Position numbers and translations under genes: made by a program. DNA of 24,000 bases from an uncultured Burkholderiaceae bacterium (GTDB lineage: Bacteria; Pseudomonadota; Gammaproteobacteria; Burkholderiales; Burkholderiaceae): assembly GCA_966212065.1 (NCBI GenBank), contig CBIHOQ010000016.1:61550-85549 (forward strand), read 5' to 3'. This document shows, in pieces, positions 7,446-17,936 of the stretch. Position 1 is the first letter of the stretch; the number at the start of each line of letters is the position of its first letter. The notes under the pieces were generated by a model. The model was given only the letters and a program-made list of their open reading frames with translations. It had not been told where the DNA came from and did no database searches.

Positions 7446-7640
7446 GCCATTCGCGCCGCCCTGGCCCCCGCGTTCGACGCCGGCCAGGCGCGCACATCGC
7501 GCTGTTCGACTGACGCCTCGATTCAGGCCGATGGCGCCGCGTAACCCTATCGATGACAGCGCCGATACCTAGTGCCGGGGTTGCCTCGATCTTCCACAGT
7601 GGTGCACGCATGCCGGTACTCCAACCTAACTTGCGGAAAC

Positions 7641-7705: not shown

Positions 7706-7718
7706 ATTGTCCGACAAT
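7706..7718. promoter_or_regulatory. GntR/FadR-type operator candidate 2 (ATTGT-CCG-ACAAT)
   Basis: Same half-sites as site 1, and TTGTCCGACAA also fits T-N-GT-N3-AC-N-A. It lies 34 nt upstream of ATG 7752. It contains the TTG (7707) that the ORF track used as a start. Confidence 0.5.
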
Positions 7719-7751
7719 AATAGCGCCTACCATCGCTTCCCCCGCTCGTCC

Positions 7752-10301
7752 ATGTCCACACATTCCACGCTTAGCGTCGCATCCTCTCCGCAGGCAACGG
7801 GGCTCAATGCCCTGTTAACTAGCGGCCTGTCGGTCAGCTTTCCCCGTCTGGATACCGCTGATGCGATTGCGATCACACGCCGCGTTTACGGCATAGATGG
7901 GGCAGCTACGAGGTTTTCGACCGAGAAGGACGACACCTTTCGTATCGACGCCTGCGACGGCGCGCGGTACGTCTTGAAGATCTCGAACCCCGGCGAGACA
8001 GCTGAAGAGCTCGACTTGCAGGTGGCCGCGATGCGGCACGTCGCGCTCGTCGCGCCCCGGTTGCCGGTGTCGCGCGTGCTGCCAAGTATTGATGGACAAT
8101 TTATCGTGCCGCTCGCGTTAGCCTCATCCACGCAGCCGCACCGCACGGCGAGGCTCTACAGCTACCTCGAAGGCACGCCGCTCGACACACTGCACCCTAG
8201 CGCACGCAATCGATACGAGATCGGTGAGGTGCTGGCGCAACTGCGCCTGGCCATGGCCGACTTCCGGCATCCGCACGAGCACCGGGTGCTGGCTTGGGAC
8301 GTGAAGCACTTGGCGAGTCTCGCGGGGTTGCAGGCCCATATCGCCGACCCGTTGCACCGCTCGCTGATCGAGCAGGCATTCGCGCGCTTTGCGGCGATCG
8401 AACCGGCCTTACGCCGCTGTCCGACGCAAGTCGTGCACAACGACTTCAACCGCTCGAACATCGTCGCCAACGCAGGCGGCCCGAACTTCGTCAGCGGCAT
8501 CATCGACTTTGGCGACACCGTGCATACGGCGGTAGCCATCGATGTCGCCACGGCGGTCATGAATCAATTCCCGCTCGACTTCGACGCCGACGGCTCGCAC
8601 GACCTGTTTGTCGAGGCGCGCGACCTGCTGCGCGGCTATCTCGCGCATGCCGAGCTCAGCGCTGACGAACTGCTGCTGATTCCGCACCTGGCGATGGCGC
8701 GCGTCGCGGCGCGGGCCTTACTGACTTCATGGCGCGCCATGCTGTTTCCGGAAAACGAGGCCTACATCCTGCGTTTCACTCGGCCGGGATGGGAGCATTT
8801 GCGCTGGTTCATGCAACGCGACCATGACACCGTTTCCCATGCCTTGCTTGAGTTCGTCCGCCGACCCACTCGCTCCACCTCTCTTGAGCCCTCTATGAAC
8901 GCCACCCCCACGCCCATGCCGCAGCCGCCCGTCCTCAATCAAGCCGTCGATACCGGCAAACCCGCCGACAGCCTGCGCGGCGACATGCCGAACGGCTTCA
9001 ATCCCTCGGAGATCTCCCACCTCGACGCCGCCACGCAACAACACATCGCGCGCCGCCTACGGCTGCTCAGTCCGTCGTATCGCTTGTTTTACGCCGAGCC
9101 GGTAAAGATTGTGCGCGGCGAGAAGGTCTATCTGTACGACGATGAGGGCAACGACTATCTCGACGCCTACAACAATGTCGTCTGCGTCGGGCATGCCAAT
9201 CCGCGCATTGTCGATGCTGTTACCCGTCAGCTCTCGACACTCTGCACGCATACGCGCTACATGCAGGAGCCGATCCTCGACTATGCAGAGGACCTGCTCT
9301 CGACCTTCAACACGTCGATCCGCGAAGGGCAGATGATGTTCACCTGCACGGGTTCCGAGGCCAACGACCTGGCCATGCGCATCGCGATGCAGTACACCGG
9401 CAAGACAGGCGTGATCGTGACCAGCGAGGCCTATCACGGCAACTCTCACATCACCTCGAGTTTTTCGCCGTCGCTGGGCCGCAAGGCCTTGCTGGGCCCC
9501 TACGTGCGCACGGTACCGGCCCCCGACTCATACCGGATGACGCCGTCCGAGATCGGTCAGCGCATGGCCGAGCAAGTCGCGCTGCAGATCGAGGACATCC
9601 GCCGTCACGGCGGCGGCCTGGCCGCCTTCATCGCCGATTCTTTCTTCTCGTCGGATGGCGTCTTCGCGCACCCGACCGATGTGCTGGCGCCGGTGGCCGA
9701 GGTGGTGCGCCGCGCCGGCGGACTGTTCATCGCGGATGAGGTGCAATCGGGCTTCGGGCGCGGCGGTACCCACATGTGGGGGCACGAGCGCCACGGTGTC
9801 GTGCCCGATATCGTCACGCTGGGCAAGCCGATGGGCAACGGCTACCCGGTAGCGGGTCTGGTCGCGCGCCCCGAGGTCGTCGCCGGCTTTGGCCGGGACA
9901 TGCGCTACTTCAACACCTTCGGCGGCAATTCGGTGGCGGTCGCTGCCGCGCAGGCTACGCTCGACGTGCTGCGCGACGACTATGTGCTCGATAACGTGCA
10001 GCGGGTCGGCGCGATCATGCTCGAGGGGTTGAATGCGCTGGCAAAGAAATACGAATGCATCGGCGATGTGCGCGGCACCGGTCTGTATTTCGGCGTCGAG
10101 ATGGTGCGTGATCGCGCGAAGAAGGACACCGACATCGCGACGGCGCTCAAGGTCGTTAATGGCCTGCGCCAGCGGCGCGTGCTGATTTCGGCAACGGGGC
10201 CGGACGCGAGCGTGCTGAAGATCCGACCGCCGCTGGTGTTCGCGGCCAAGGACGCGGACCGCTTGCTGACGGAACTGGACGCCGTGCTCGCCTCGCTCTA
10301 G
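7752..10301 (+). CDS. Bifunctional fusion: APH-family (hydroxylysine-kinase / homoserine-kinase II-like) phosphotransferase plus a class-III aminotransferase-fold PLP enzyme (phospho-lyase-like)
   Basis: All residue numbers use track-ORF numbering (start 7707). The N-terminal domain (residues ~40-385) has the kinase catalytic loop VHNDFNRSN (243-251) and IIDFGD (265-270). A Pro/Thr-rich linker follows (~386-440). The C-terminal domain has YNNVVCVGHANPRIV, GSEANDLAMRIA, ADEVQSGFGRGG and the PLP-lysine motif DIVTLGKPMGNGYPVAG (AAG at 9825-9827). I prefer the ATG at 7752 over the TTG at 7707. Confidence 0.88.
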   Translation: MSTHSTLSVASSPQATGLNALLTSGLSVSFPRLDTADAIAITRRVYGIDGAATRFSTEKDDTFRIDACDGARYVLKISNPGETAEELDLQVAAMRHVALVAPRLPVSRVLPSIDGQFIVPLALASSTQPHRTARLYSYLEGTPLDTLHPSARNRYEIGEVLAQLRLAMADFRHPHEHRVLAWDVKHLASLAGLQAHIADPLHRSLIEQAFARFAAIEPALRRCPTQVVHNDFNRSNIVANAGGPNFVSGIIDFGDTVHTAVAIDVATAVMNQFPLDFDADGSHDLFVEARDLLRGYLAHAELSADELLLIPHLAMARVAARALLTSWRAMLFPENEAYILRFTRPGWEHLRWFMQRDHDTVSHALLEFVRRPTRSTSLEPSMNATPTPMPQPPVLNQAVDTGKPADSLRGDMPNGFNPSEISHLDAATQQHIARRLRLLSPSYRLFYAEPVKIVRGEKVYLYDDEGNDYLDAYNNVVCVGHANPRIVDAVTRQLSTLCTHTRYMQEPILDYAEDLLSTFNTSIREGQMMFTCTGSEANDLAMRIAMQYTGKTGVIVTSEAYHGNSHITSSFSPSLGRKALLGPYVRTVPAPDSYRMTPSEIGQRMAEQVALQIEDIRRHGGGLAAFIADSFFSSDGVFAHPTDVLAPVAEVVRRAGGLFIADEVQSGFGRGGTHMWGHERHGVVPDIVTLGKPMGNGYPVAGLVARPEVVAGFGRDMRYFNTFGGNSVAVAAAQATLDVLRDDYVLDNVQRVGAIMLEGLNALAKKYECIGDVRGTGLYFGVEMVRDRAKKDTDIATALKVVNGLRQRRVLISATGPDASVLKIRPPLVFAAKDADRLLTELDAVLASL

Positions 10302-10404: not shown

Positions 10405-11094
10405 ATGAGTGCACCGATTCCTAAACCGGCGAGCGTCGCCGAGGCGGCCAAGCCCACAGCCGTTCAAGCGCTGGCCGAGAAGCTCAAGACCCGCATCTTG
10501 AACGGCGATTTCGCGCCGGGCGAGTACCTGCGCGACATCAAGATGGCCGAGCAGTACGAAGTGTCGCGCAGCACGTTCCGCACGGCCGCGCAGTTGCTGG
10601 TCGCGCGCCGCATCCTGCGCCAAGTGCCCAATCGCGGGTTCTTCGTGCCGGAGTTCTCGGCCGACGACATCGTCGACGTAACGCGTTTTCGGGGCGTGCT
10701 CGAAGTCGAGGCGGTGAAGATGATCGTGCATACCGGGCACATTCCGGTCGAGGCGATCAATGCGGTCGAGCGGCTGCGGGATGCCCCCGACGACGCGCCG
10801 GTCTCGTTCATGGTGGAGGGGGATCGCGACTTTCATCGCGCGATTGTGGCGGCCAGCGGCAGCGAGCGGCTGCAACGCAGCTATGAAGCGATCGAGAGCG
10901 AGATCGAATTGCTGCTGGTGCAGCGCCAGCATTTCTACGAACACCCGAAGGAAATCGTGCGAGAGCACGAGCACTTGATTGCCTGCCTGAAGACGCGCGA
11001 CTTCGCGGCCGCGCGCGATGCCTTCCTCGAACACTGGGATGATCTGCGCGTCAGCCTGCTGCGCGTCGAGGCGAAGAAGGTGCGGGCGCGCTGA
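10405..11094 (+). CDS. GntR-family transcriptional regulator (FadR subfamily, FCD C-terminal domain)
   Basis: wHTH: GEYLRDIKMAEQYEVSRSTFRTAAQLLVARRILRQVPNRGFFV. The helical C-terminal domain contains DRDFHRAIV and REHEHL His residues, as in FCD domains. The start is uncertain (GTG 10381 or ATG 10405), and neither has a clear SD. Confidence 0.85.
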   Translation: MSAPIPKPASVAEAAKPTAVQALAEKLKTRILNGDFAPGEYLRDIKMAEQYEVSRSTFRTAAQLLVARRILRQVPNRGFFVPEFSADDIVDVTRFRGVLEVEAVKMIVHTGHIPVEAINAVERLRDAPDDAPVSFMVEGDRDFHRAIVAASGSERLQRSYEAIESEIELLLVQRQHFYEHPKEIVREHEHLIACLKTRDFAAARDAFLEHWDDLRVSLLRVEAKKVRAR

Positions 11095-11125
11095 ATGGGT
11101 CGTTGATCCAGCCATTCGCGGGCCA

Positions 11126-11617
11126 CTACTGAATGACCGTTCGTCCCGTGTGTCCGGAGGTCCAGCGGCGGCGCAGCCAGTGATCCACCGACAGCGTGCC
11201 CGCCCCGCGGCAGAGCAGCACGAGCAGCATCGCCGCCCACTGAATATGGGTCGGCCATGCCTGCGGGTAGACGAAGATCTCGATCACCGACGTCATGCCG
11301 AGCAGCACTAACGCCGCGGGCCGGGTCCCGAGCCCCAGCACGAGCAGAATGGGCGTGCTCAGTTCGATCGAGGTGCCGATATAAGCGGCGATCTCCGGCG
11401 GCAGCAGCGGCACCTTGTATTCATCGCGAAACAGCGCGAGCGCGGCGTCCCAGTTCGCGAGCTTGGCCATGGCGGAATTCCAGAAGACCGTCGCCACCGC
11501 GAGCCGCAGCGGGATCGCGAGCAGCCAATACGGCACTCGCTCTAGCCGCTTTGCGACGCGCAACAGCCGCGAGGGAACGGACGACGCATGGCGGTTGGTG
11601 GGTGTTAGGTCAGGCAT
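11126..11617 (-). CDS. DoxX-family membrane protein (fourth gene of the bufferin/gig-type operon)
   Basis: 163 aa from the ATG (complement of 11615-11617): MPDLTPTNRHASS...VPYWLLAIPLRLAVATVFWNSAMAKLANW...ELSTPILLVLGLGTRPAALVLLGMTSVIEIFVYPQAW, with four hydrophobic segments. The track ORF (to 11965) is over-extended in an Arg-rich frame across the upstream gene. It overlaps the upstream gene by 13 nt. Confidence 0.8.
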   Translation of the reverse strand: MPDLTPTNRHASSVPSRLLRVAKRLERVPYWLLAIPLRLAVATVFWNSAMAKLANWDAALALFRDEYKVPLLPPEIAAYIGTSIELSTPILLVLGLGTRPAALVLLGMTSVIEIFVYPQAWPTHIQWAAMLLVLLCRGAGTLSVDHWLRRRWTSGHTGRTVIQ

Positions 11618-12423
11618 GGCGATGATCCTCCAGAAGGAGATCCGGCGTCGGGCACCGACTCGGCATCGGCAAAGCATGCGCGCCCGAGCAGTAAGGCCAG
11701 AAGAGCGTACCCGTCCGTGCTTAGAGCGACAGACAGCGCGTCGCGAATCGCTTCGCCGGCAAAGAGTGCAGCAGCGATCCGGTACTCGCCATCGCCCAAG
11801 CGAAGGACCTCGACTCCTTCGGCCGTACGTTGCACGAGCAGGTGCACCGGACCATCGTCGAGTCGGATCGAATGCATCGCCGGGGCGTCCTGCTCGAGCA
11901 CCGCGCGCCAGATCGCATCGGCCGGAAAGGCGAAATGCGCGAGCCGTACCGCCGGATGCGGACACAGGCGCAGCGCGCCGAGCGCATCATCGTCAAGCAA
12001 TGCCAGACGTGGAAGGTCGAGTGTCGGGAGGGCCGGTGCATGCAACACGCTATTCACCTGCCACTCGAGATACGCGACACCGGCGAGATATGGCACCGAT
12101 GCTGTCTCCGGGAGTTGCGCGAGAAATGCGGGAAACGTCGCGCCATACTCGTCCAGCCATGCGCTATCCGGCGGCGATGCGTCGATGAAGCGTCGGACGG
12201 CTCCTTCAAAGCACTCCGCTCCAACGAGACGTTGCACGGCCGGAAACGCCAGGCGAATCGCATTCACCAGCACGCCGGTCGCCGTGTTGCGATAGATCGA
12301 CAGACGCGCAACGGGCGCGAGGCCGTCAGCCACGATCCACGCCTCGGCGTCTCCCCCCGCGCCGCGCAGATTTTCTCGAACCGCTCGCTGCAATTCAGCC
12401 AGCGTGGATGCGGGCGGGTTCAT
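11605..12423 (-). CDS. bufC: DUF2063-family protein (BufC/GigB-like partner of the DUF692 enzyme)
   Basis: The sequence LAELQRAVRENLRG...RLSIYRNTATGVLVNAIRLAFPAVQRLVGAECFEGAVRRFIDASPPDSAWLDEYGATFPAFLAQ...YLAGVAYLEWQVNSVLHAP carries the SIYRN / LxxxFP / YLxDxAxLEW pattern that I recognise for DUF2063. The start is at 12423 (MNPPAST) or 12453, overlapping the upstream gene by 29 or 59 nt. Confidence 0.78.
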   Translation of the reverse strand: MNPPASTLAELQRAVRENLRGAGGDAEAWIVADGLAPVARLSIYRNTATGVLVNAIRLAFPAVQRLVGAECFEGAVRRFIDASPPDSAWLDEYGATFPAFLAQLPETASVPYLAGVAYLEWQVNSVLHAPALPTLDLPRLALLDDDALGALRLCPHPAVRLAHFAFPADAIWRAVLEQDAPAMHSIRLDDGPVHLLVQRTAEGVEVLRLGDGEYRIAAALFAGEAIRDALSVALSTDGYALLALLLGRACFADAESVPDAGSPSGGSSPCLT

Positions 12424-13285
12424 ATCGAGCCGTCTCCAGTGCAAATTCTGCAATTGCCGCTTCCTGCATCAAGGTTTCCAGCGCCGGCACATCGGTGTCC
12501 CATTCGATCAGTGTCGGTACGGCGCCGAAACGGCGCAGCGCTTCGCGATACAGGGTCCAGACCTCGGGCGCGACGCGAGAGCCGTGATCGTCGATGCGCA
12601 GCGTGTGCCCGTCCTCGAACTGCCTGACGCTGTGACCCGCAAGATGAATCTCGCCGATCGACGCCGGCGGCAGCGCAGCGAGATAGGCCCGCGGATCCCA
12701 GCCGTGATTGCAGGCGCTGACGTAGATGTTGTTGACATCGCAAAGCAGGCCGCATCCTGTTCGTCGCGTGATTTCCGCGAGGAATTCCCATTCCGGAATG
12801 GTCGAGTGGACAAACTGCAGGTACGTGGACGGGTTTTCCACCAGAATCGGCCGCCCGAGTGCGTCCTGAACCTGGTCCATATGTCGGCACATGACGTCCA
12901 GCGCTTCCTCGGTCATCGGCAATGGCAGCAGATCGGCCAGATAGGTTCCGCCCACCGCACTCCACGCCACGTGCTCGGACACCAGATCGGGCTCGAAACG
13001 TCGCACCGTTGCGCATATGCGAGCCAGATGCGCGGCGTCCAGCCCATCGGGGCTGCCGAGGGACAGGCCCACGCCATGCAGCGACAGCGGGTAGTCGCGG
13101 CGGATGGCGTCCAGATATTGCGACGCCGTTCCGCCCCCCATGTAGTTCTCGGTGTGTACCTCGAACCAAGGGACAGCCGGCTTCTCATCAAGCACTGCCT
13201 GATGGTGCCGGAAGCGCAGGCCAACGCCCGCCCGCGCGGGGACTGGCCGTGGCGCCGCGCAATGCGATGGCGCGGATACGTTCAT
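12395..13285 (-). CDS. bufB: DUF692 / MbnB-like multinuclear non-heme iron oxidative enzyme (MNIO), BufB/GigA-like
   Basis: 296 aa from the ATG (complement of 13283-13285). Motifs: GVGLRFRHH, WFEVHTENYM, HGVGLSLGS, SEHVAWS, ILVENPSTY, LCDVNNIYVSA, HLAGH, LIEWDTD. These form the TIM-barrel metal-ligand pattern of DUF692. The track ORF (to 13456) is over-extended into the precursor gene. Confidence 0.88.
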   Translation of the reverse strand: MNVSAPSHCAAPRPVPARAGVGLRFRHHQAVLDEKPAVPWFEVHTENYMGGGTASQYLDAIRRDYPLSLHGVGLSLGSPDGLDAAHLARICATVRRFEPDLVSEHVAWSAVGGTYLADLLPLPMTEEALDVMCRHMDQVQDALGRPILVENPSTYLQFVHSTIPEWEFLAEITRRTGCGLLCDVNNIYVSACNHGWDPRAYLAALPPASIGEIHLAGHSVRQFEDGHTLRIDDHGSRVAPEVWTLYREALRRFGAVPTLIEWDTDVPALETLMQEAAIAEFALETARYEPARIHAG

Positions 13286-13299
13286 GGCGGAACCCGTCT

Positions 13300-13620
13300 T
13301 CAGCTGGCCTTGAGTTTGCCGCCCGCGATCTTGCTGCAGTCGCCGGCCGGCAGCAGCACGAAGGACTTCGCATCGCGAGCCTGCGTGGACTGGCCAGCGC
13401 ACGAATGGGCCCCTTCGGCGCAGTCGTTCTTGGCTACCGCGTTCACGCCGTAGCATTTTTCGAGGTGGTTTTGCGCCATCCTGGCCATGTTGTCTTTGAC
13501 GATCTGGGGCATATTGCTCATATCCTTCATGCCCTGCGCTTGCCCCGGGACGGCTTGCATGGCGAGCGCGAGCCCGACGGCGGCGGATAGCGAGGAAATG
13601 GCCGAAGCGGATTTGCTCAT
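13300..13620 (-). CDS. bufA: Secreted DUF2282 Cys-containing RiPP precursor (bufferin BufA1 / GigP-like)
   Basis: 106 aa from the ATG (complement of 13618-13620), preceded by an AGGAGA RBS. It has a Sec-type signal (MSKSASAISSLSAAVGLALAMQA), a Met-rich tract (MKDMSNMPQIVKDNMARMAQNH) and a core EKCYGVNAVAKNDCAEGAHSCAGQSTQARDAKSFVLLPAGDCSKIAGG. The four Cys are at residues 56, 67, 74 and 95. Only 14 nt separate it from the DUF692 gene. Confidence 0.85.
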   Translation of the reverse strand: MSKSASAISSLSAAVGLALAMQAVPGQAQGMKDMSNMPQIVKDNMARMAQNHLEKCYGVNAVAKNDCAEGAHSCAGQSTQARDAKSFVLLPAGDCSKIAGGKLKAS

Positions 13621-13669
13621 GGTGTGTTCTCCTGACGTGGGATCGCCGATGCGCGACCTTGTCAAAAAA

Positions 13670-13695
13670 TTCGCTCCGTCGCAGCCAAAGGTTAC
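13670..13695 (-). promoter_or_regulatory. ECF (SigF/ECF16-type) promoter candidate GTAACC-N16-CGAA driving the precursor operon
   Basis: The minus strand reads GTAACC tttggctgcgacggag CGAA. GTAACC is the complement of 13690-13695, the spacer is exactly 16 nt, and CGAA is the complement of 13670-13673. The element ends 49 nt upstream of the bufA ATG. As I recall it, this matches the promoter consensus published for Caulobacter SigF. Confidence 0.6.
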
Positions 13696-13757
13696 TCAGC
13701 GTGCCGAAAATTTTTTGCGCCGCTTTTTGCGCTGCGTCTTAAGAGGATCGATGGGTC

Positions 13758-14411
13758 ATGACTGACGAGAAAGGCCATCGGCGACGCCGCATCCATCTGG
13801 TCCGGCCGGCACCCGGACCGGAACGCGGCGTCGGCGCGCAGGCCGCAACCCGGGAGGACGGATCGCCCGACTGGTCGATGCTGATGGCATGTGCGCAGAT
13901 CGGCGACAAGGACGCGTACCGGCGCTTGCTCGAGAGCATCGCGCCGTACCTGAGGCGCCTCGCTGCGCGCCGCGGCGTGCATCCGGATGCCGTCGAAGAC
14001 GTCGTTCAGGACATTCTCGCGACGATCCACCAGGTGCGTCATACGTATGCGCCCGAGCGGCCGTTCGGGCCCTGGCTGGTGTCGATCGCGAGCCGGCGCA
14101 TCGTCGATGCATTGCGGCGGCAGGGGCGCGCGGTATCGCGCGAAGTGCCGCTCGATCCGGAACATGAAACCTTGCAGGGTGACGGAGCGAATCTTATGGA
14201 AGAAGCGGCGGATGCGCGCGTGCTGCGCGAAGTGCTCGCCCAGTTACCGCCAGGTCAGCGCGAGGCGATCCGGATGCTGAAGCTCGAGGAGATGTCGTTG
14301 AAGGAAGCGGCCGTGGCGACCGGCATGACCCTAGGCGCGTTGAAGGCCGCGGTCCATCGCGGGCTCAAGGCGTTGCGCAGGTTGTTGGAAAAGCAGGGGA
14401 ACCGGCAATGA
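13758..14411 (+). CDS. ECF-type RNA polymerase sigma-70 factor (SigF/RpoQ-like)
   Basis: Region 2: DAYRRLLESIAPYLRRLAARRGVHPDAVEDVVQDILATIHQVRHTY...FGPWLVSIASRRIVDALRR. Region 4: LPPGQREAIRMLKLEEMSLKEAAVATGMTLGALKAAVHRGLKALRRLL. An AAGAGGA RBS ends 10 nt upstream of ATG 13758. An alternative internal start at 13878 would remove a 40-aa N-terminal extension. Confidence 0.88.
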   Translation: MTDEKGHRRRRIHLVRPAPGPERGVGAQAATREDGSPDWSMLMACAQIGDKDAYRRLLESIAPYLRRLAARRGVHPDAVEDVVQDILATIHQVRHTYAPERPFGPWLVSIASRRIVDALRRQGRAVSREVPLDPEHETLQGDGANLMEEAADARVLREVLAQLPPGQREAIRMLKLEEMSLKEAAVATGMTLGALKAAVHRGLKALRRLLEKQGNRQ

Positions 14412-15067
14412 GGCGTTCGACGTCCGAACTGATCGAATCGCTGGTGGCCGACAGTGCGCCGGTGCGTCCGCTGCGTCGCCCGCTTTGGCGGGCGACGGGC
14501 TGGCTGATGTTTGCGGCGCTGCTGCTGCTATCCGTCGCCGTCGCCCAGGGCTTGCGCCCGGATTTGCCGCTCAAGCTGCACGAGCGCGTGTTCCTCACGG
14601 GTGTCGTGACTGCCGCGGCAACGGGCGGCCTGGCCGCCGTCGCCGCGTTTATCGCCAGCGTACCGGGGCGCTCGCTGCGCTGGTTGTTGCTGCCGCTACC
14701 GGCGCTGCTCGTTTGGACGTCCATGATCGGCTACGGTTGCCTGACGAACTGGATCGAGATCGGTCCCGACGGTATCTCGCCCGGCGAAACCGCGCGCTGC
14801 TTCGCGACGCTCGTGCTGACCAGTGTGCCGCTTTCGCTGACGTTGTTAGTCATGCTGCGCCATGTCGCACGCCTCGCGCCCGTGCCGGTGGCGATGACGG
14901 GGGGGCTTGCCGTCGCCGCGATGACCGCCGTGGCGTTGTCGCTGTTCCATCCTCTCGACGCGACGGTAATGATCCTTGCGTGGAATCTCGGTTTGACGGT
15001 CGTCCTGTTGATCGGTAGCGCATGCTACGGCCCGCGATTGTTCCACTGGGTCGAATCGCATTCGTGA
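14408..15067 (+). CDS. nrsF: DUF1109 / NrsF-family membrane anti-sigma factor
   Basis: 219 aa, starting in an ATGA overlap with the sigma gene stop. The N-terminus MRRSTSELIESLVADSAPVRPL resembles the DUF1109 start, and about six hydrophobic TM segments follow. Cys residues sit in predicted loops (GYGCLTNW, ETARCF). Confidence 0.78.
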   Translation: MRRSTSELIESLVADSAPVRPLRRPLWRATGWLMFAALLLLSVAVAQGLRPDLPLKLHERVFLTGVVTAAATGGLAAVAAFIASVPGRSLRWLLLPLPALLVWTSMIGYGCLTNWIEIGPDGISPGETARCFATLVLTSVPLSLTLLVMLRHVARLAPVPVAMTGGLAVAAMTAVALSLFHPLDATVMILAWNLGLTVVLLIGSACYGPRLFHWVESHS

Positions 15068-15101
15068 CCCACTGCATTGAGCCTTCTCCGTTAAAATAAG
15101 T

Positions 15102-15137
15102 TGTAAAGTACGCTACCTATGTGTAGTGTATTTTACA
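15102..15137. promoter_or_regulatory. Imperfect 15-bp inverted repeat in the AT-rich nrsF-chrB gap (candidate ChrB operator or RNA hairpin)
   Basis: TGTAAAGTACGCTAC (15102-15116), a 6-nt spacer (CTATGT), then GTAGTGTATTTTACA (15123-15137). 13 of 15 positions are complementary. The right arm ends on the A of the preferred chrB ATG. Confidence 0.35.
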
Positions 15138-16117
15138 TGACGACATTAACCACCTGGTCTGTCCTCGTCCTGACGTTCCCAACCGAGAACGCCACTGCGC
15201 GCATGCGGGCATGGCGGGCGCTGAAAGCGAAGGGGTGCGCCGTCCTGCGTGACGGCATCTATCTATTGCCGCATACCGTCGAGCGTGAGGACATGCTGCG
15301 CGAACTCGCTGCCAGCATCGATGATGCCGGCGGTACCGCGCATCTGCTGCGGGCGCAAAGTCTGAACTCGTCGCAGGAAGCAGACTTTCGCGCACTGTTC
15401 GATCGGAACGACGATTACGCGACCTTTGTCTCGGCGTTGGGAATCGCGCGGAAAACGCTGGGAGGCCAGTCACCGGCAGAGGTCACCCGCCTGCTGCGTC
15501 GCCTGCGCAAGGACTATGACGCGATCCGGCTGATCGACTATTTCCCGGGCGCGGCATCGACCGAGGCCGAAGTGGCCTGGGAAGACTTCCTGGCGCTCGC
15601 GGATACGGTCCTGTCGCCGGGCGAGCCGCATGCGGCTGAGCGGGTTATCCGGCGCCTGCAGCGCGACGACTATCAGGCACGGACGTGGGCGACCCGGCAA
15701 CGGCTATGGGTCGATCGCGCCGCGAGCGCCTGGCTGATCCGCCGCTTCATCGATCCGCAGGCGCGCTTCGTGTGGCTCGTGTCGCCGAAGGCCTGCCCGC
15801 AGGAGGCGCTTGGCTTCGACTTCGACGGCGCCGCCTTTACGCATGTGGGCGAGCGCGTGACGTTCGAGGTGCTGGTCGTGAGCTTCGGTCTCGATGACGA
15901 CGCGGCGCTTCTTCGGCTCGGCGAAATGGTGCATGCGTTGGATGTCGGCGGCACGCCGGTGCCCGAGGCGATTGGTTTTGAGGCGGTGATGGCCGGCATG
16001 CGGCAACGCGCGTTGGACGACGATCAACTGCTCGAGGAGATAGGTCGCGTGTTGGATTCAATCTACGCACACTTTGCGGTGAGCACAAAAAACGGCAACG
16101 CAGGGGGCCGGCCATGA
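15137..16117 (+). CDS. chrB: Chromate resistance regulator/sensor protein ChrB
   Basis: N-terminal WSVLVLTFPTENATARMRAWRALKAKGCAVLRDGIYLLP (ChrB N-domain pattern). C-terminal WVDRAASAWLIRRFIDPQARFVWL...GFDFDGAAFTHVGERVTFEVL (ChrB C-domain pattern). It lies directly upstream of chrA, with an ATGA overlap. The start is ATG 15137 or 15119. Confidence 0.85.
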   Translation: MTTLTTWSVLVLTFPTENATARMRAWRALKAKGCAVLRDGIYLLPHTVEREDMLRELAASIDDAGGTAHLLRAQSLNSSQEADFRALFDRNDDYATFVSALGIARKTLGGQSPAEVTRLLRRLRKDYDAIRLIDYFPGAASTEAEVAWEDFLALADTVLSPGEPHAAERVIRRLQRDDYQARTWATRQRLWVDRAASAWLIRRFIDPQARFVWLVSPKACPQEALGFDFDGAAFTHVGERVTFEVLVVSFGLDDDAALLRLGEMVHALDVGGTPVPEAIGFEAVMAGMRQRALDDDQLLEEIGRVLDSIYAHFAVSTKNGNAGGRP

Positions 16118-17298
16118 ACACCACGACGGCGACCCAACCCGGCTACACGCTCGGCCAGCTGGCCCTTTACATGCTGCGGCTCGGAGCCTTCGGTTTTGGC
16201 GGCCCGGTGGCGCTCGTCGGCTATATGCACCGCGACCTCGTCGAGCGCCGGGGCTGGATCAGCGAACAGGACTACAAGGAGGGGCTGGCGCTGGCTCAAA
16301 TGATGCCTGGGCCGCTTGCCGCGCAACTCGGCATTTATCTCGGTTACGTACATTACCGCGTTGTTGGCGCGACGCTGGCGAGTATCGCCTTTGTATTGCC
16401 TTCATTCCTGATGGTCGTCGCGCTGGGTTGGGCCTATGCCCGGTTTGGCGGCCTGCCCTGGATGCAGGCGGTCTTCTACGGCGTCGGTGCCGCGGTGGTC
16501 GGAATCATTGCGATGAGCGCCTACAAGCTGACTAGAAAGACCGTCGGCACAGACAGGCTGCTGTGGGCGATATTCCTGACGCTCGCGGCCGTGACCGTTG
16601 CCACCGAATCCGAAATCGCGTGGCTGTTTATCGCGGGGGGCCTGCTCAACTGGTTCTGGCGGGCGCCGCCGAAATGGCTACACAAGGGCGGACTGAATGC
16701 GCTTGCGATGACGCAGACAGCGGCTTTGAGCGGCGTTTTCAGCGGTATCGACCTATCTTTGCTCGGCCAGATCGGCGCTTTTTTCGCCAAGGCCGGCGCG
16801 TTTGTGTTCGGCTCGGGACTCGCGATCGTGCCGTTTCTCTACGGTGGCGTGGTGACCGAACACCACTGGCTCAACGACAAGCAATTCGTCGATGCCGTGG
16901 CTGTGGCGATGATCACACCGGGACCGGTCGTCATCACGGTCGGGTTCATCGGTTATCTCGTCGCCGGATTTTCGGGGGCCTGCGTCGCCGCGCTCGGCAC
17001 CTTCCTGCCTTGCTATCTGTTCACGGTGCTGCCGGCACCGTACTTCAAGAAATACGGCAGGCTGCCCGCCGTCAAAGCGTTCGTCGACGGCATCACGGCT
17101 GCGGCGGTCGGGGCCATTACCGGCTCAGTGATTGTCATCGCACGAAGGTCCATCGTCGACTGGCCGACCATCGCACTCGTCCTTGTGACGGTCGTGCTGC
17201 TCTGGCGCTTCAAGAAACTCCAGGAGCCGGTGATCGTCGTCGCGGCGGCCCTGTTCGGTCTTGTTGTCTATCCGCTCATTCATTCTCACGCTATCTAA
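16114..17298 (+). CDS. chrA: Chromate ion transporter ChrA (CHR family)
   Basis: 394 aa, with the duplicated CHR-domain architecture. First half: FGGPVALVGYMHRDLVERRGWISEQDYKEGLALAQMMPGPLAAQL. Second half: VFGSGLAIVPFLYGGVVTEHHWLNDKQFVDAVAVAMITPGPVVITVGFIGY. Confidence 0.92.
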   Translation: MNTTTATQPGYTLGQLALYMLRLGAFGFGGPVALVGYMHRDLVERRGWISEQDYKEGLALAQMMPGPLAAQLGIYLGYVHYRVVGATLASIAFVLPSFLMVVALGWAYARFGGLPWMQAVFYGVGAAVVGIIAMSAYKLTRKTVGTDRLLWAIFLTLAAVTVATESEIAWLFIAGGLLNWFWRAPPKWLHKGGLNALAMTQTAALSGVFSGIDLSLLGQIGAFFAKAGAFVFGSGLAIVPFLYGGVVTEHHWLNDKQFVDAVAVAMITPGPVVITVGFIGYLVAGFSGACVAALGTFLPCYLFTVLPAPYFKKYGRLPAVKAFVDGITAAAVGAITGSVIVIARRSIVDWPTIALVLVTVVLLWRFKKLQEPVIVVAAALFGLVVYPLIHSHAI

Positions 17299-17327
17299 AG
17301 GCACGCGCGTGCGCGCAATTTGCAGCA

Positions 17328-17936
17328 ATGAACACACGTGAGGAAGGCCGCACCGCTTCATTGGCGGACCGGATGTCGCGTTGGGTATTGCCGGCCGGCG
17401 CCGACAGCGCAGCACGGTTGCTGCTGGTAAGTCGCGGACTGCGCGGTTTCTGCGATGGATTCATCGCGGTTCTGCTGCCGGCATATCTGCTCGCGCTTGG
17501 GTTAGGACAGGTCAGCGTCGGCCTGATCAGCACCGCGACGCTTATCGGCTCCGCCGTGGCGACGATAGCGGTCGGTGCCTTTGCCAATCGTTTCACGGCG
17601 CGCCGGATGTTCGTTTTTGCCGCCGCATTGATGATCGCCACCGGACTCGGGTTTAGCGGGTTTTCGTCGTTCCTGCCGATCCTGATCGTGGCCTTCGTGG
17701 GTACGCTCAATCCGAGCTCAGGCGACGTCAGCCTCTTTCTTCCCCTGGAGCAATCACGCCTTGCCGAAATGGCGGCCGGCGAAGCGCGAACGGCATTGTT
17801 TGCGCGCTACAGCCTGATCGGCGCGATGTCGGCAGCGCTCGGTTCGCTCGCCGCGGGCGTGCCCGCGTGGCTGGTAACGCATACAGGCATGCCGGAGCTA
17901 TCCGGATGGGATGGCCTACGCGCCCGATGTGCATAA
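17328..17936 (+). pseudogene. MFS transporter remnant (N-terminal six-TM half only, ~202 codons)
   Basis: The sequence MNTREEG...LLLVSRGLRGFCDGFIAVLLPAYLLALGLGQVSVGLISTATLIGSAVATIAVGAFANRF...LIVAFVGTLNPSSGDVSLFLPLEQSRLAE...RTALFARYSLIGAMSAALGSLAAG matches the first half of ~400-aa MFS proteins. The frame stops at 17936, and the following DNA encodes an unrelated beta-propeller. The track's 457-aa ORF (from 16563) is an out-of-frame extension across chrA. Confidence 0.6.

Follow-up and report, generated by a model that had tools for sequence, protein, structure and literature searches.

A Buf1-type bufferin gene cluster next to an ECF16 sigma/anti-sigma pair in a Burkholderiaceae contig, with a candidate promoter inside the sigma factor gene

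Introduction

The closest described relatives of the gene cluster analysed here are the bufferin (buf) loci of Caulobacter and the gig locus of Cupriavidus metallidurans. The precursors of the former, BufA1 proteins, are 80–120 amino acids (aa) long and possess four Cys residues and a Sec signal (Leprevost et al. 2024, PMC11626156). Cys residues of the Caulobacter buf1 product are converted to 5-thiooxazoles, and the resulting peptide binds copper and protects against it (PMC11626156). Gold and copper induce the gig locus, which plays a minor part in copper resistance (PMC11626156, PMC13492112). Here, we describe a cluster of this type in a stretch of 24,000 nucleotides (nt) from an uncultured Burkholderiaceae bacterium (assembly GCA_966212065.1, contig CBIHOQ010000016.1, positions 61,550 to 85,549), which is referred to below as the window.

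[quoted passage not shown] Caulobacter bufferins are induced by Cu but not by Fe, Zn or Mn, they protect against Cu, and the buf1 operon is controlled by the adjoining SigF/NrsF pair (PMC11626156). The SigF consensus, GTAACC-N16-CGAA, was mapped in Caulobacter by 5′RACE, and conserved Cys residues of Caulobacter NrsF (C131/C181) are needed for its function (PMC3511200). More generally, the central Cys residues of Buf1 peptides are modified, the first and last are linked by a disulfide, sigma/NrsF genes recur next to the clusters, and fusions of MerC with bufferins are known (PMC12452194). Thousands of Buf1 clusters have been catalogued, and the layout linked to sigma/NrsF is a major Buf1 type (Antoine et al. 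2025, PMC12452194). The reactions catalysed by MNIOs are diverse (PMC11626156), and tens of thousands of these enzymes have been united as one group that produces thiooxazole metallophores (Gadgil et al. 2026, PMC13097082).

Gene Layout and Family Assignment

The locus is very probably a Buf1-type cluster of a Burkholderia/Trinickia-like bacterium, run by the adjoining sigma/anti-sigma pair of extracytoplasmic function group 16 (ECF16). Family membership, gene order, motifs and conservation were established for it directly. Gene models were derived from the list of open reading frames (ORFs) and a start-codon analysis of the window, and comprised the following six genes:

13620..13300, minus strand: bufA, 106 aa, Buf1 (DUF2282/BufA1) bufferin precursor, with an AGGAG Shine–Dalgarno sequence
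13285..12395, minus strand: bufB, 296 aa, MNIO (formerly DUF692) bufferin maturase
12423..11605, minus strand: bufC, 272 aa, DUF2063 partner of the MNIO
11617..11126, minus strand: bufD, 163 aa, DoxX-family membrane protein
13758..14411, plus strand: sigF, 217 aa, ECF16-type sigma factor
14408..15067, plus strand: nrsF, 219 aa, DUF1109/NrsF membrane anti-sigma factor, with its own AGGGGA Shine–Dalgarno sequence

A gap of 14 nt separates bufA from bufB, while bufB and bufC overlap by 29 nt and bufC and bufD by 13 nt. The sigF and nrsF genes share an ATGA overlap and diverge from the four minus-strand buf genes, the spacer between bufA and sigF being 137 nt long. An earlier reading by a model that saw only the letters and their ORFs (the sequence-only reading) had proposed four packed minus-strand genes with these gap and overlap sizes, a divergent sigma/NrsF pair and an ATGA junction. 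Our analysis reproduced this gene model exactly and recovered all of the peptide motifs quoted in it: EKCYG, NDCAEGAHSCAGQ, GDCSKIAGG, WFEVHTENY, HGVGLSLGS, SEHVAWS, HLAGH and IEWD.

All six proteins exceeded the curated Pfam gathering cutoffs in the profile hidden Markov model searches that the same reading had proposed. BufA matched DUF2282 (PF10048) over residues 54–103 with 72.2 bits (cutoff 22.4, E 3.4e-20). BufB matched MbnB_TglH_ChrH (355.5 bits, cutoff 25), BufC matched DUF2063 in its N-terminal domain (residues 10–101, 76.3 bits, cutoff 27.2) and BufD matched DoxX (PF07681, 57.4 bits, cutoff 23.6). SigF scored 47.7 bits with Sigma70_r2 and 49.8 bits with Sigma70_r4_2, and NrsF covered the whole length of the NrsF profile (93.3 bits, cutoff 26.8).

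Searches against NCBIfam were most informative for BufB, which passed the equivalog NF050167 MNIO_BufB ("MNIO family bufferin maturase") with 385.5 bits (cutoff 310; profile positions 1–261 of 262). The scores of BufB with other NCBIfam models were all below cutoff: 41 of 325 bits for MbnB, 40 of 600 for ChrH, 75 of 400 for ApyH and 226 of 360 for HvfB. The sole NCBIfam match of BufA was a weak one to BufA2 (18 bits); we therefore assigned BufA to its family because of the Pfam match and its identity to named BufA1 proteins. The DUF2063 partner of a Buf1 cluster is expected to have an RRE-like domain at its C terminus; for BufC, a sequence search for solved structures returned no relative.

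Precursor and Maturase

Residues 1–30 of BufA form a putative Sec signal peptide (...VPGQAQG|MKD), with the cleavage site read from sequence. It opens with the basic n-region MSK, contains a hydrophobic segment (residues 5–25) and ends in an AQG|M site, which homologues keep as AQA or AQG. The mature peptide calculated from this site is 76 aa long with a mass of 8014 Da. The four Cys residues (Cys56, Cys67, Cys74 and Cys95) were invariant across 14 aligned homologues. BufA shares 90–95% identity with proteins of Burkholderia that bear the name "BufA1 family periplasmic bufferin-type metallophore", and its 90% cluster includes proteins of Burkholderia ubonensis and the B. cepacia complex, several of which already carry the BufA1 name (NCBI, UniRef). 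A homology search yielded 2683 relatives. Among the best 120 of these, nearly all were 106 aa long and 75–95% identical to BufA, and they came from Burkholderia, Paraburkholderia, Cupriavidus, Polaromonas, Glaciimonas and Noviherbaspirillum.

The sequence-only reading had also mentioned variant features of the locus, but we found none in the biosynthetic core. In particular, a Met-rich stretch behind the BufA signal peptide was ruled out as a variant copper site: M34, M45 and M48 are invariant, and in the 14-homologue alignment the Met-containing segment is conserved throughout Burkholderiales BufA1 proteins, including those of Cupriavidus.

BufB could be aligned with Protein Data Bank (PDB) entry 3bww (E 9e-37), TglH (8hci) and MbnB (7fc0, E 1e-5). 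The motifs HTEN (44–47), HG (70–71), SEH (103–105), VEN (149–151), DVNN (183–186), HLAGH (214–218), DDH (232–234) and EWD (261–263) are kept. The metal-site motifs line up with their equivalents in 3bww and TglH, and the N and D-x-H positions match the HvfB site-3 residues N175/D242/H244. By sequence, the His/Asp/Glu/Asn motifs of the MNIO iron site are intact in BufB.

Distribution of the Cluster

At no fewer than 10 independent loci, the six genes recur with order and orientation unchanged; these loci belong to five genera: Trinickia, Burkholderia, Paraburkholderia, Cupriavidus and Nitrobacter. Because of this recurrence, the arrangement is far beyond chance. Loci with this layout include those of Cupriavidus necator pBB1, Cupriavidus sp. 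KK10 and a Nitrobacter hamburgensis plasmid. The closest genomes were Trinickia dabaoshanensis (81% identity for NrsF) and a B. pyrrocinia plasmid (88% identity for SigF), and the window's own proteins are also present on ENA/Logan metagenome contigs.

The sequence-only reading had identified a bufferin/gig-type cluster with a divergent ECF sigma/NrsF pair, and the profiles, the BufA1 identity and the gene order upheld this. Its view that such loci are poorly described and routinely annotated as DUFs did not hold. In addition to the thousands of catalogued clusters, there are precursors named BufA1 and an NCBIfam equivalog for BufB, and precomputed Pfam labels on the metagenome contig collection give PF10048 as "BufA1" and PF09836 as "HvfC_N". 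The locus is an ordinary further member of the known bufferin/gig family, because near-identical precursors carry the BufA1 name, the layout recurs and the literature lists this Buf1 type. The operon adds one uncharacterised member to a family of thousands of clusters and brings no conceptual change.

The Putative bufA Promoter and the SigF/NrsF Pair

One exact ECF16 motif lies in the spacer that separates bufA from sigF:

13695..13670, minus strand: P_buf, GTAACC-TTTGGCTGCGACGGAG-CGAA, with the −10 element ending 49 nt upstream of the bufA ATG

P_buf exactly matches the ECF16 target consensus (T/C)GTAAC(C)-N16/17-CGAA and is the only exact match with an N16 spacer in the window. With spacers of N15–17, two matches were observed versus 0.06 expected. 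Both motif and orientation are invariant in a spacer alignment of four genera. Among the compared loci, which we denote by L numbers, the exact motif stands at the same position and in the same orientation in L001–3, L009, L010, L012–15 and the C. metallidurans CH34 locus (L018). The orientation used here (−35 GTAAC, −10 CGAA) is confirmed by the 5′RACE work on Brucella and by the targets of Sinorhizobium meliloti RpoE7. The Rhizobium locus L015, in which bufA follows the motif and points the same way, confirms it as well. We infer that P_buf acts as a SigF promoter here.

P_buf is flanked by a perfect 9-nt inverted repeat (CAAAAAATT / AATTTTTTG) at 13663–13671 and 13709–13717. The repeat is partly conserved in related spacers and might be an operator or a piece of the sigF promoter.

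The features of an ECF16/NrsF pair were found together: a sigma factor with Sigma70_r2 and Sigma70_r4_2 domains, the ATGA overlap, and a DUF1109 protein with two conserved Cys residues. NrsF has five hydrophobic segments over the threshold and a weaker one at residues 93–110. Its Cys111 and Cys131, which do not vary across 13 homologues, flank a conserved "CLTNW...GETARC" loop.

SigF begins with an Arg-rich extension of ~37 aa (13758–13870, MTDEKGHRRRRIHLVR...). For Trinickia, Burkholderia and Paraburkholderia, the extension could be aligned from residue 1 onwards, and its "R-(I/L)-x-L-V" motif recurs in homologues from Trinickia, Burkholderia and Rhizobium. For many metagenomic SigF homologues, the alignment begins at residue ~38.

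A Candidate Promoter within sigF

A second motif of the ECF16 type lies inside the sigma factor gene:

14166..14191, plus strand: P_int (candidate promoter), GAAACC-TTGCAGGGTGACGGAG-CGAA, in sigF codons E137–T138 ... A144–N145, 217 nt upstream of the nrsF ATG

The motif occupies the same codons in nine of the 10 related divergent loci. Of 80 metagenomic homologues with 52–66% identity to the window's SigF, 74 have it too, and the other six have variants with two mismatches. Its conservation was most apparent at the level of codon choice. Across 106 conserved-residue columns of 91 unique sigF genes, the four lowest codon entropies all belong to P_int codons: A144 (GCG in 76/76), F139 (TTT in 71/73), E137 (GAA in 83/86) and T138 (ACC in 83/87). 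These choices run against the codon bias of the gene. Entropies of the other Ala codons are 1.1–1.9, other Glu residues are mostly encoded by GAG, and the other conserved Phe codon of sigF is TTC in 75 of the 91 genes, versus TTT within P_int. Mean pairwise identity at four-fold degenerate sites of the sigF set is 0.46. Where residue 137 is replaced by Val, Ala or Lys, the DNA remains GTAACC, GCAACC or AAAACC, respectively. P_int also agrees with the extended P_buf consensus, (T/C)G-AACCTTT...GCGAA.

The internal motif is missing from four loci (L015, L016, L017 and CH34 L018), and in all four sigF stands behind an exact upstream motif. This is achieved directly in CH34 and Methylobacterium, whereas in Rhizobium sigF-nrsF is fused to the buf operon at its end.

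On balance, we favour the interpretation that P_int is a SigF-dependent promoter overprinted on the sigma2–sigma4 linker, which would boost nrsF alone and provide negative feedback with a constitutive level of SigF. The clade with P_int, a large one of Buf1-linked ECF16 systems, covers Burkholderia, Trinickia, Paraburkholderia, some Cupriavidus, Nitrobacter and many soil metagenome contigs. In this clade, the upstream autoregulatory promoter of the sigma/anti-sigma operon has seemingly been replaced by one within the linker codons of the sigma gene, which we again regard as somewhat more probable than its contrary. The arrangement appears to be undescribed in the literature searched. If true, it would make P_int a testable regulatory signal overprinted on coding sequence, in an ECF circuit with negative-only feedback; P_int could be disabled by synonymous mutations, leaving the protein unchanged.

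The gigP–rpoQ Spacer of Cupriavidus metallidurans

In the chromid of C. metallidurans CH34 (NC_007974.2), the region 1315143–1315228 (L018 6144–6229) contains two exact, divergent GTAACC-N16-CGAA motifs. The plus-strand motif (1315203–1315228) stops 9 nt short of TSS_1315237, the published start of rpoQ, and the minus-strand motif (1315168–1315143) is directed at gigP. A 2026 transcriptome paper gives the ECF16 consensus as −35 AATTCG and −10 GGTTAC, and reports no ECF16 motif at rpoQ or gig (PMC13492112). That consensus is the reverse complement of the ECF16 consensus. This suggests that the published absence of ECF16 motifs at rpoQ/gig rests on a reversed consensus and needs re-examination, since the correctly oriented consensus matches exactly in both directions in the gigP–rpoQ spacer.

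Flanking Genes

Directly after nrsF lie chrB (ChrB_N and ChrB_C domains) and chrA (chromate transporter), which together span 15119/15137–17298 and overlap each other by 4 nt. The chrB start is 70 nt past nrsF, with no terminator-like site between them. A 15-nt imperfect inverted repeat at 15102–15137 (TGTAAAGTACGCTAC / GTAGTGTATTTTACA), which overlaps the likely start of chrB (15137), may serve this gene as its own operator. None of the other loci examined had chrBA next to sigF-nrsF. We considered chrBA as part of the bufferin system but treated it as an independent unit, given the inverted repeat at the chrB start and an adjacency that is not conserved.

The flanks of the cluster differ between loci, yet are often metal-related. 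On two plasmids, the bufD end adjoins mercury-related genes. For B. thailandensis (L012 665–2273), these are merP, a gene of the MerT family, one for a heavy-metal-responsive regulator, a GDCCVxC (seleno)protein gene and a thioredoxin gene. For P. phenoliruptrix (L013 2141–2350), there is a GDCCVxC gene only.

On the other side of the window's cluster, an APH-type phosphotransferase domain and a class-III aminotransferase are joined in a single plus-strand ORF of 849–864 aa (7707–10301). The gene behind it encodes a GntR/FCD regulator and is convergent with bufD. An ECF16-like motif with one mismatch (GTAACC-N16-CGAT, 7541–7566, plus strand) lies ~186 nt upstream of the fusion gene (7752–10301). 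The one-mismatch ECF16 motifs of the window other than P_int (at 29, 7541 and 19863) were set aside as compatible with chance, the number of matches with up to two mismatches being 20 versus 15.5 expected. A search against Rfam found no known RNA family in the window.

Proposed Mechanism and Alternative Explanations

From the family assignments and the work on described systems, we infer the chemistry, metal specificity, promoter activity and feedback loop as follows. BufA would be synthesised as a 106-aa precursor, in which the iron-dependent oxidase BufB and its DUF2063 partner BufC would turn the central Cys67 and Cys74 into 5-thiooxazoles. The Sec pathway would export the peptide, the signal peptide of ~30 aa would be cut off and a Cys56–Cys95 disulfide would form, giving a periplasmic product of ~8 kDa that would chelate surplus copper. 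BufD (DoxX) is a presumed accessory, conserved but dispensable for modification in Caulobacter. NrsF, with six predicted transmembrane segments, would keep SigF at the membrane until a metal or oxidant signal arrives in the periplasm, probably sensed via the loop of the invariant Cys111 and Cys131. Released SigF would then fire the exact GTAACC-N16-CGAA promoter ahead of bufA. In the clade with P_int, it probably also fires the near-consensus promoter within its own coding sequence, from which nrsF alone would be transcribed. The outcome of the internal promoter would be negative feedback without positive autoregulation of sigF.

Several points weigh against this picture. Thiooxazole formation, copper binding and induction are carried over from Caulobacter and are thus expected by analogy. 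BufC falls under the cutoff of the NCBIfam HvfC equivalog (39.9 versus 142 bits, residues 39–211) and BufD under that of the HvfX family (59.7 versus 80 bits); both models were made for the Hvf/oxazolin branch. No plus-strand ECF16 motif with up to two mismatches was found upstream of sigF in the 137-nt spacer, and such a motif is likewise missing upstream of sigF in 79 of 80 related metagenomic loci. Autoregulatory promoters upstream of the sigma gene occur in Caulobacter, S. meliloti, Brucella and CH34, and are typical rather than defining. A promoter scan of 10900–17500 detected no sigma-70-like site for sigF or the operon. In C. metallidurans, the dependence of gig expression on RpoQ could not be demonstrated (PMC13492112). 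Finally, P_int sits in coding sequence and differs from the consensus by one mismatch (T-to-A in the −35 element).

The function of the product could differ from the one proposed, in its metal or in its chemistry. It is rather unlikely, in our estimate, that the same cluster has a main job other than copper, such as a response to chromate, cadmium, gold, mercury or oxidants, with chrBA drawn into the SigF response via read-through from nrsF. Chromate, dichromate and cadmium activate SigF/NrsF in Caulobacter (PMC3511200), and hypochlorous acid (HOCl) or reactive oxygen species trigger other ECF16 systems. However, Caulobacter bufferins respond to Cu rather than to Fe, Zn or Mn and are Cu-protective. 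Read-through would be favoured by the 70-nt distance between nrsF and chrB and the lack of a terminator-like site, but the spacer has its own 15-nt inverted repeat, resembling a separate operator, and the adjacency recurs in no other locus examined. A link to mercury is suggested by the mer genes that adjoin the cluster on other Burkholderia/Paraburkholderia plasmids and by the MerC–bufferin fusions (PMC12452194). A different MNIO modification, for example an oxazolone-thioamide as in methanobactin, would yield a product that is not a thiooxazole peptide. The diversity of MNIO reactions (PMC11626156) speaks for it, and close enzyme relatives were initially assigned oxazolone-thioamide products. 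Those disputed products were, however, later reassigned to 5-thiooxazoles (PMC13097082). Since BufB moreover passes the bufferin-maturase equivalog and stays far under the MbnB, ChrH, ApyH and HvfB cutoffs, we consider such chemistry highly improbable.

The frozen nucleotides of sigF may alternatively be something other than a promoter: a protein motif with odd codon choice, an RNA element, or a site at which SigF holoenzyme blocks or pauses. This is possible, though we hold it to be clearly less probable than a promoter. The motif lies within coding sequence and "HET(F/L)...AN" is conserved as protein, but the constraint falls on synonymous positions and opposes the codon bias of the gene, and substitutions of E137 leave the DNA near consensus. 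As for an RNA element, the motif consists of two short blocks around a spacer of variable sequence and a fixed length of 16 nt, and the blocks are not mutually complementary, unlike those of a hairpin; the Rfam search gave no match. A blocking site has some precedent in an ECF16-like site tied to copA2 repression in C. metallidurans (PMC13492112), though it was called with the reversed consensus. The mismatch in the −35 element would also suit a site that is not a promoter. The pattern nevertheless fits the extended P_buf consensus, and the four loci without the motif are those in which sigF stands behind an exact upstream motif. These observations lead us to retain P_int as a candidate SigF-dependent promoter.

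Comparison with Described Systems

The sequence-only reading had put forward two parallels, the Caulobacter bufferin (BUF1) loci and the gigPABT-rpoQ locus of C. metallidurans. Both hold: PMC11626156 names the Caulobacter buf1 operon, together with SigF/NrsF, and the gig locus in this way, and we also located the CH34 locus (L018). The buf1ABCD genes of Caulobacter vibrioides (CCNA_03363-03366), which we compared by description rather than by sequence identity, belong to the same four families in the same order. They too neighbour ECF16 sigma and NrsF genes, and the promoter consensus GTAACC-N16-CGAA is shared. The mature peptide has 76 aa in the window versus 68 aa in Caulobacter. Another difference is that Caulobacter sigF has an upstream SigF-type promoter, whereas none was found in the window, which has a near-consensus motif inside sigF.

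The gigPABT–rpoQ/rsqA locus of C. metallidurans CH34 has the same divergent operon layout. Its four biosynthetic products and sigma factor were found by tblastn and are 38–52% identical to the window proteins; RsqA (NrsF) had no tblastn match at E ≤ 1e-6. Nearer to the window than CH34 are second Cupriavidus-type loci, those of C. necator pBB1 and KK10 (63–79% identity). Unlike the window, CH34 lacks an internal sigF motif, and its gigP–rpoQ spacer of 219 nt contains two exact motifs that diverge.

A comparable circuit is formed by RpoE7-EcfR7 of S. meliloti, where an ECF16 sigma factor activates a divergent four-gene operon (SMb20530-20527) that includes DUF692 and DUF2063 genes, from promoters of the form TGTAAC...CGAAT. 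This alphaproteobacterial locus was compared by description, and it differs from the window in that RpoE7 has its own upstream promoter.

HvfABC(X) of Haemophilus influenzae (oxazolin) and other "captophorins" share with the window an MNIO with a DUF2063-type partner, a Sec-exported Cys-rich substrate and, as proposed for BufA, 5-thiooxazoles and a link to copper. The closest solved structure to BufB, 3bww, belongs to this Hvf/oxazolin branch. Precursors of the branch, however, have EGKCG repeats, the window's BufB, BufC and BufD score under the HvfB, HvfC and HvfX cutoffs, and an ECF16/NrsF pair is not reported for it in the sources cited. The methanobactin enzymes MbnBC are similar in the MNIO fold and in the iron-site motifs shared with BufB. 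In contrast to the window's cluster, they are associated with oxazolone-thioamide chemistry, a short leader-core precursor without a Sec signal, and copper acquisition rather than buffering.

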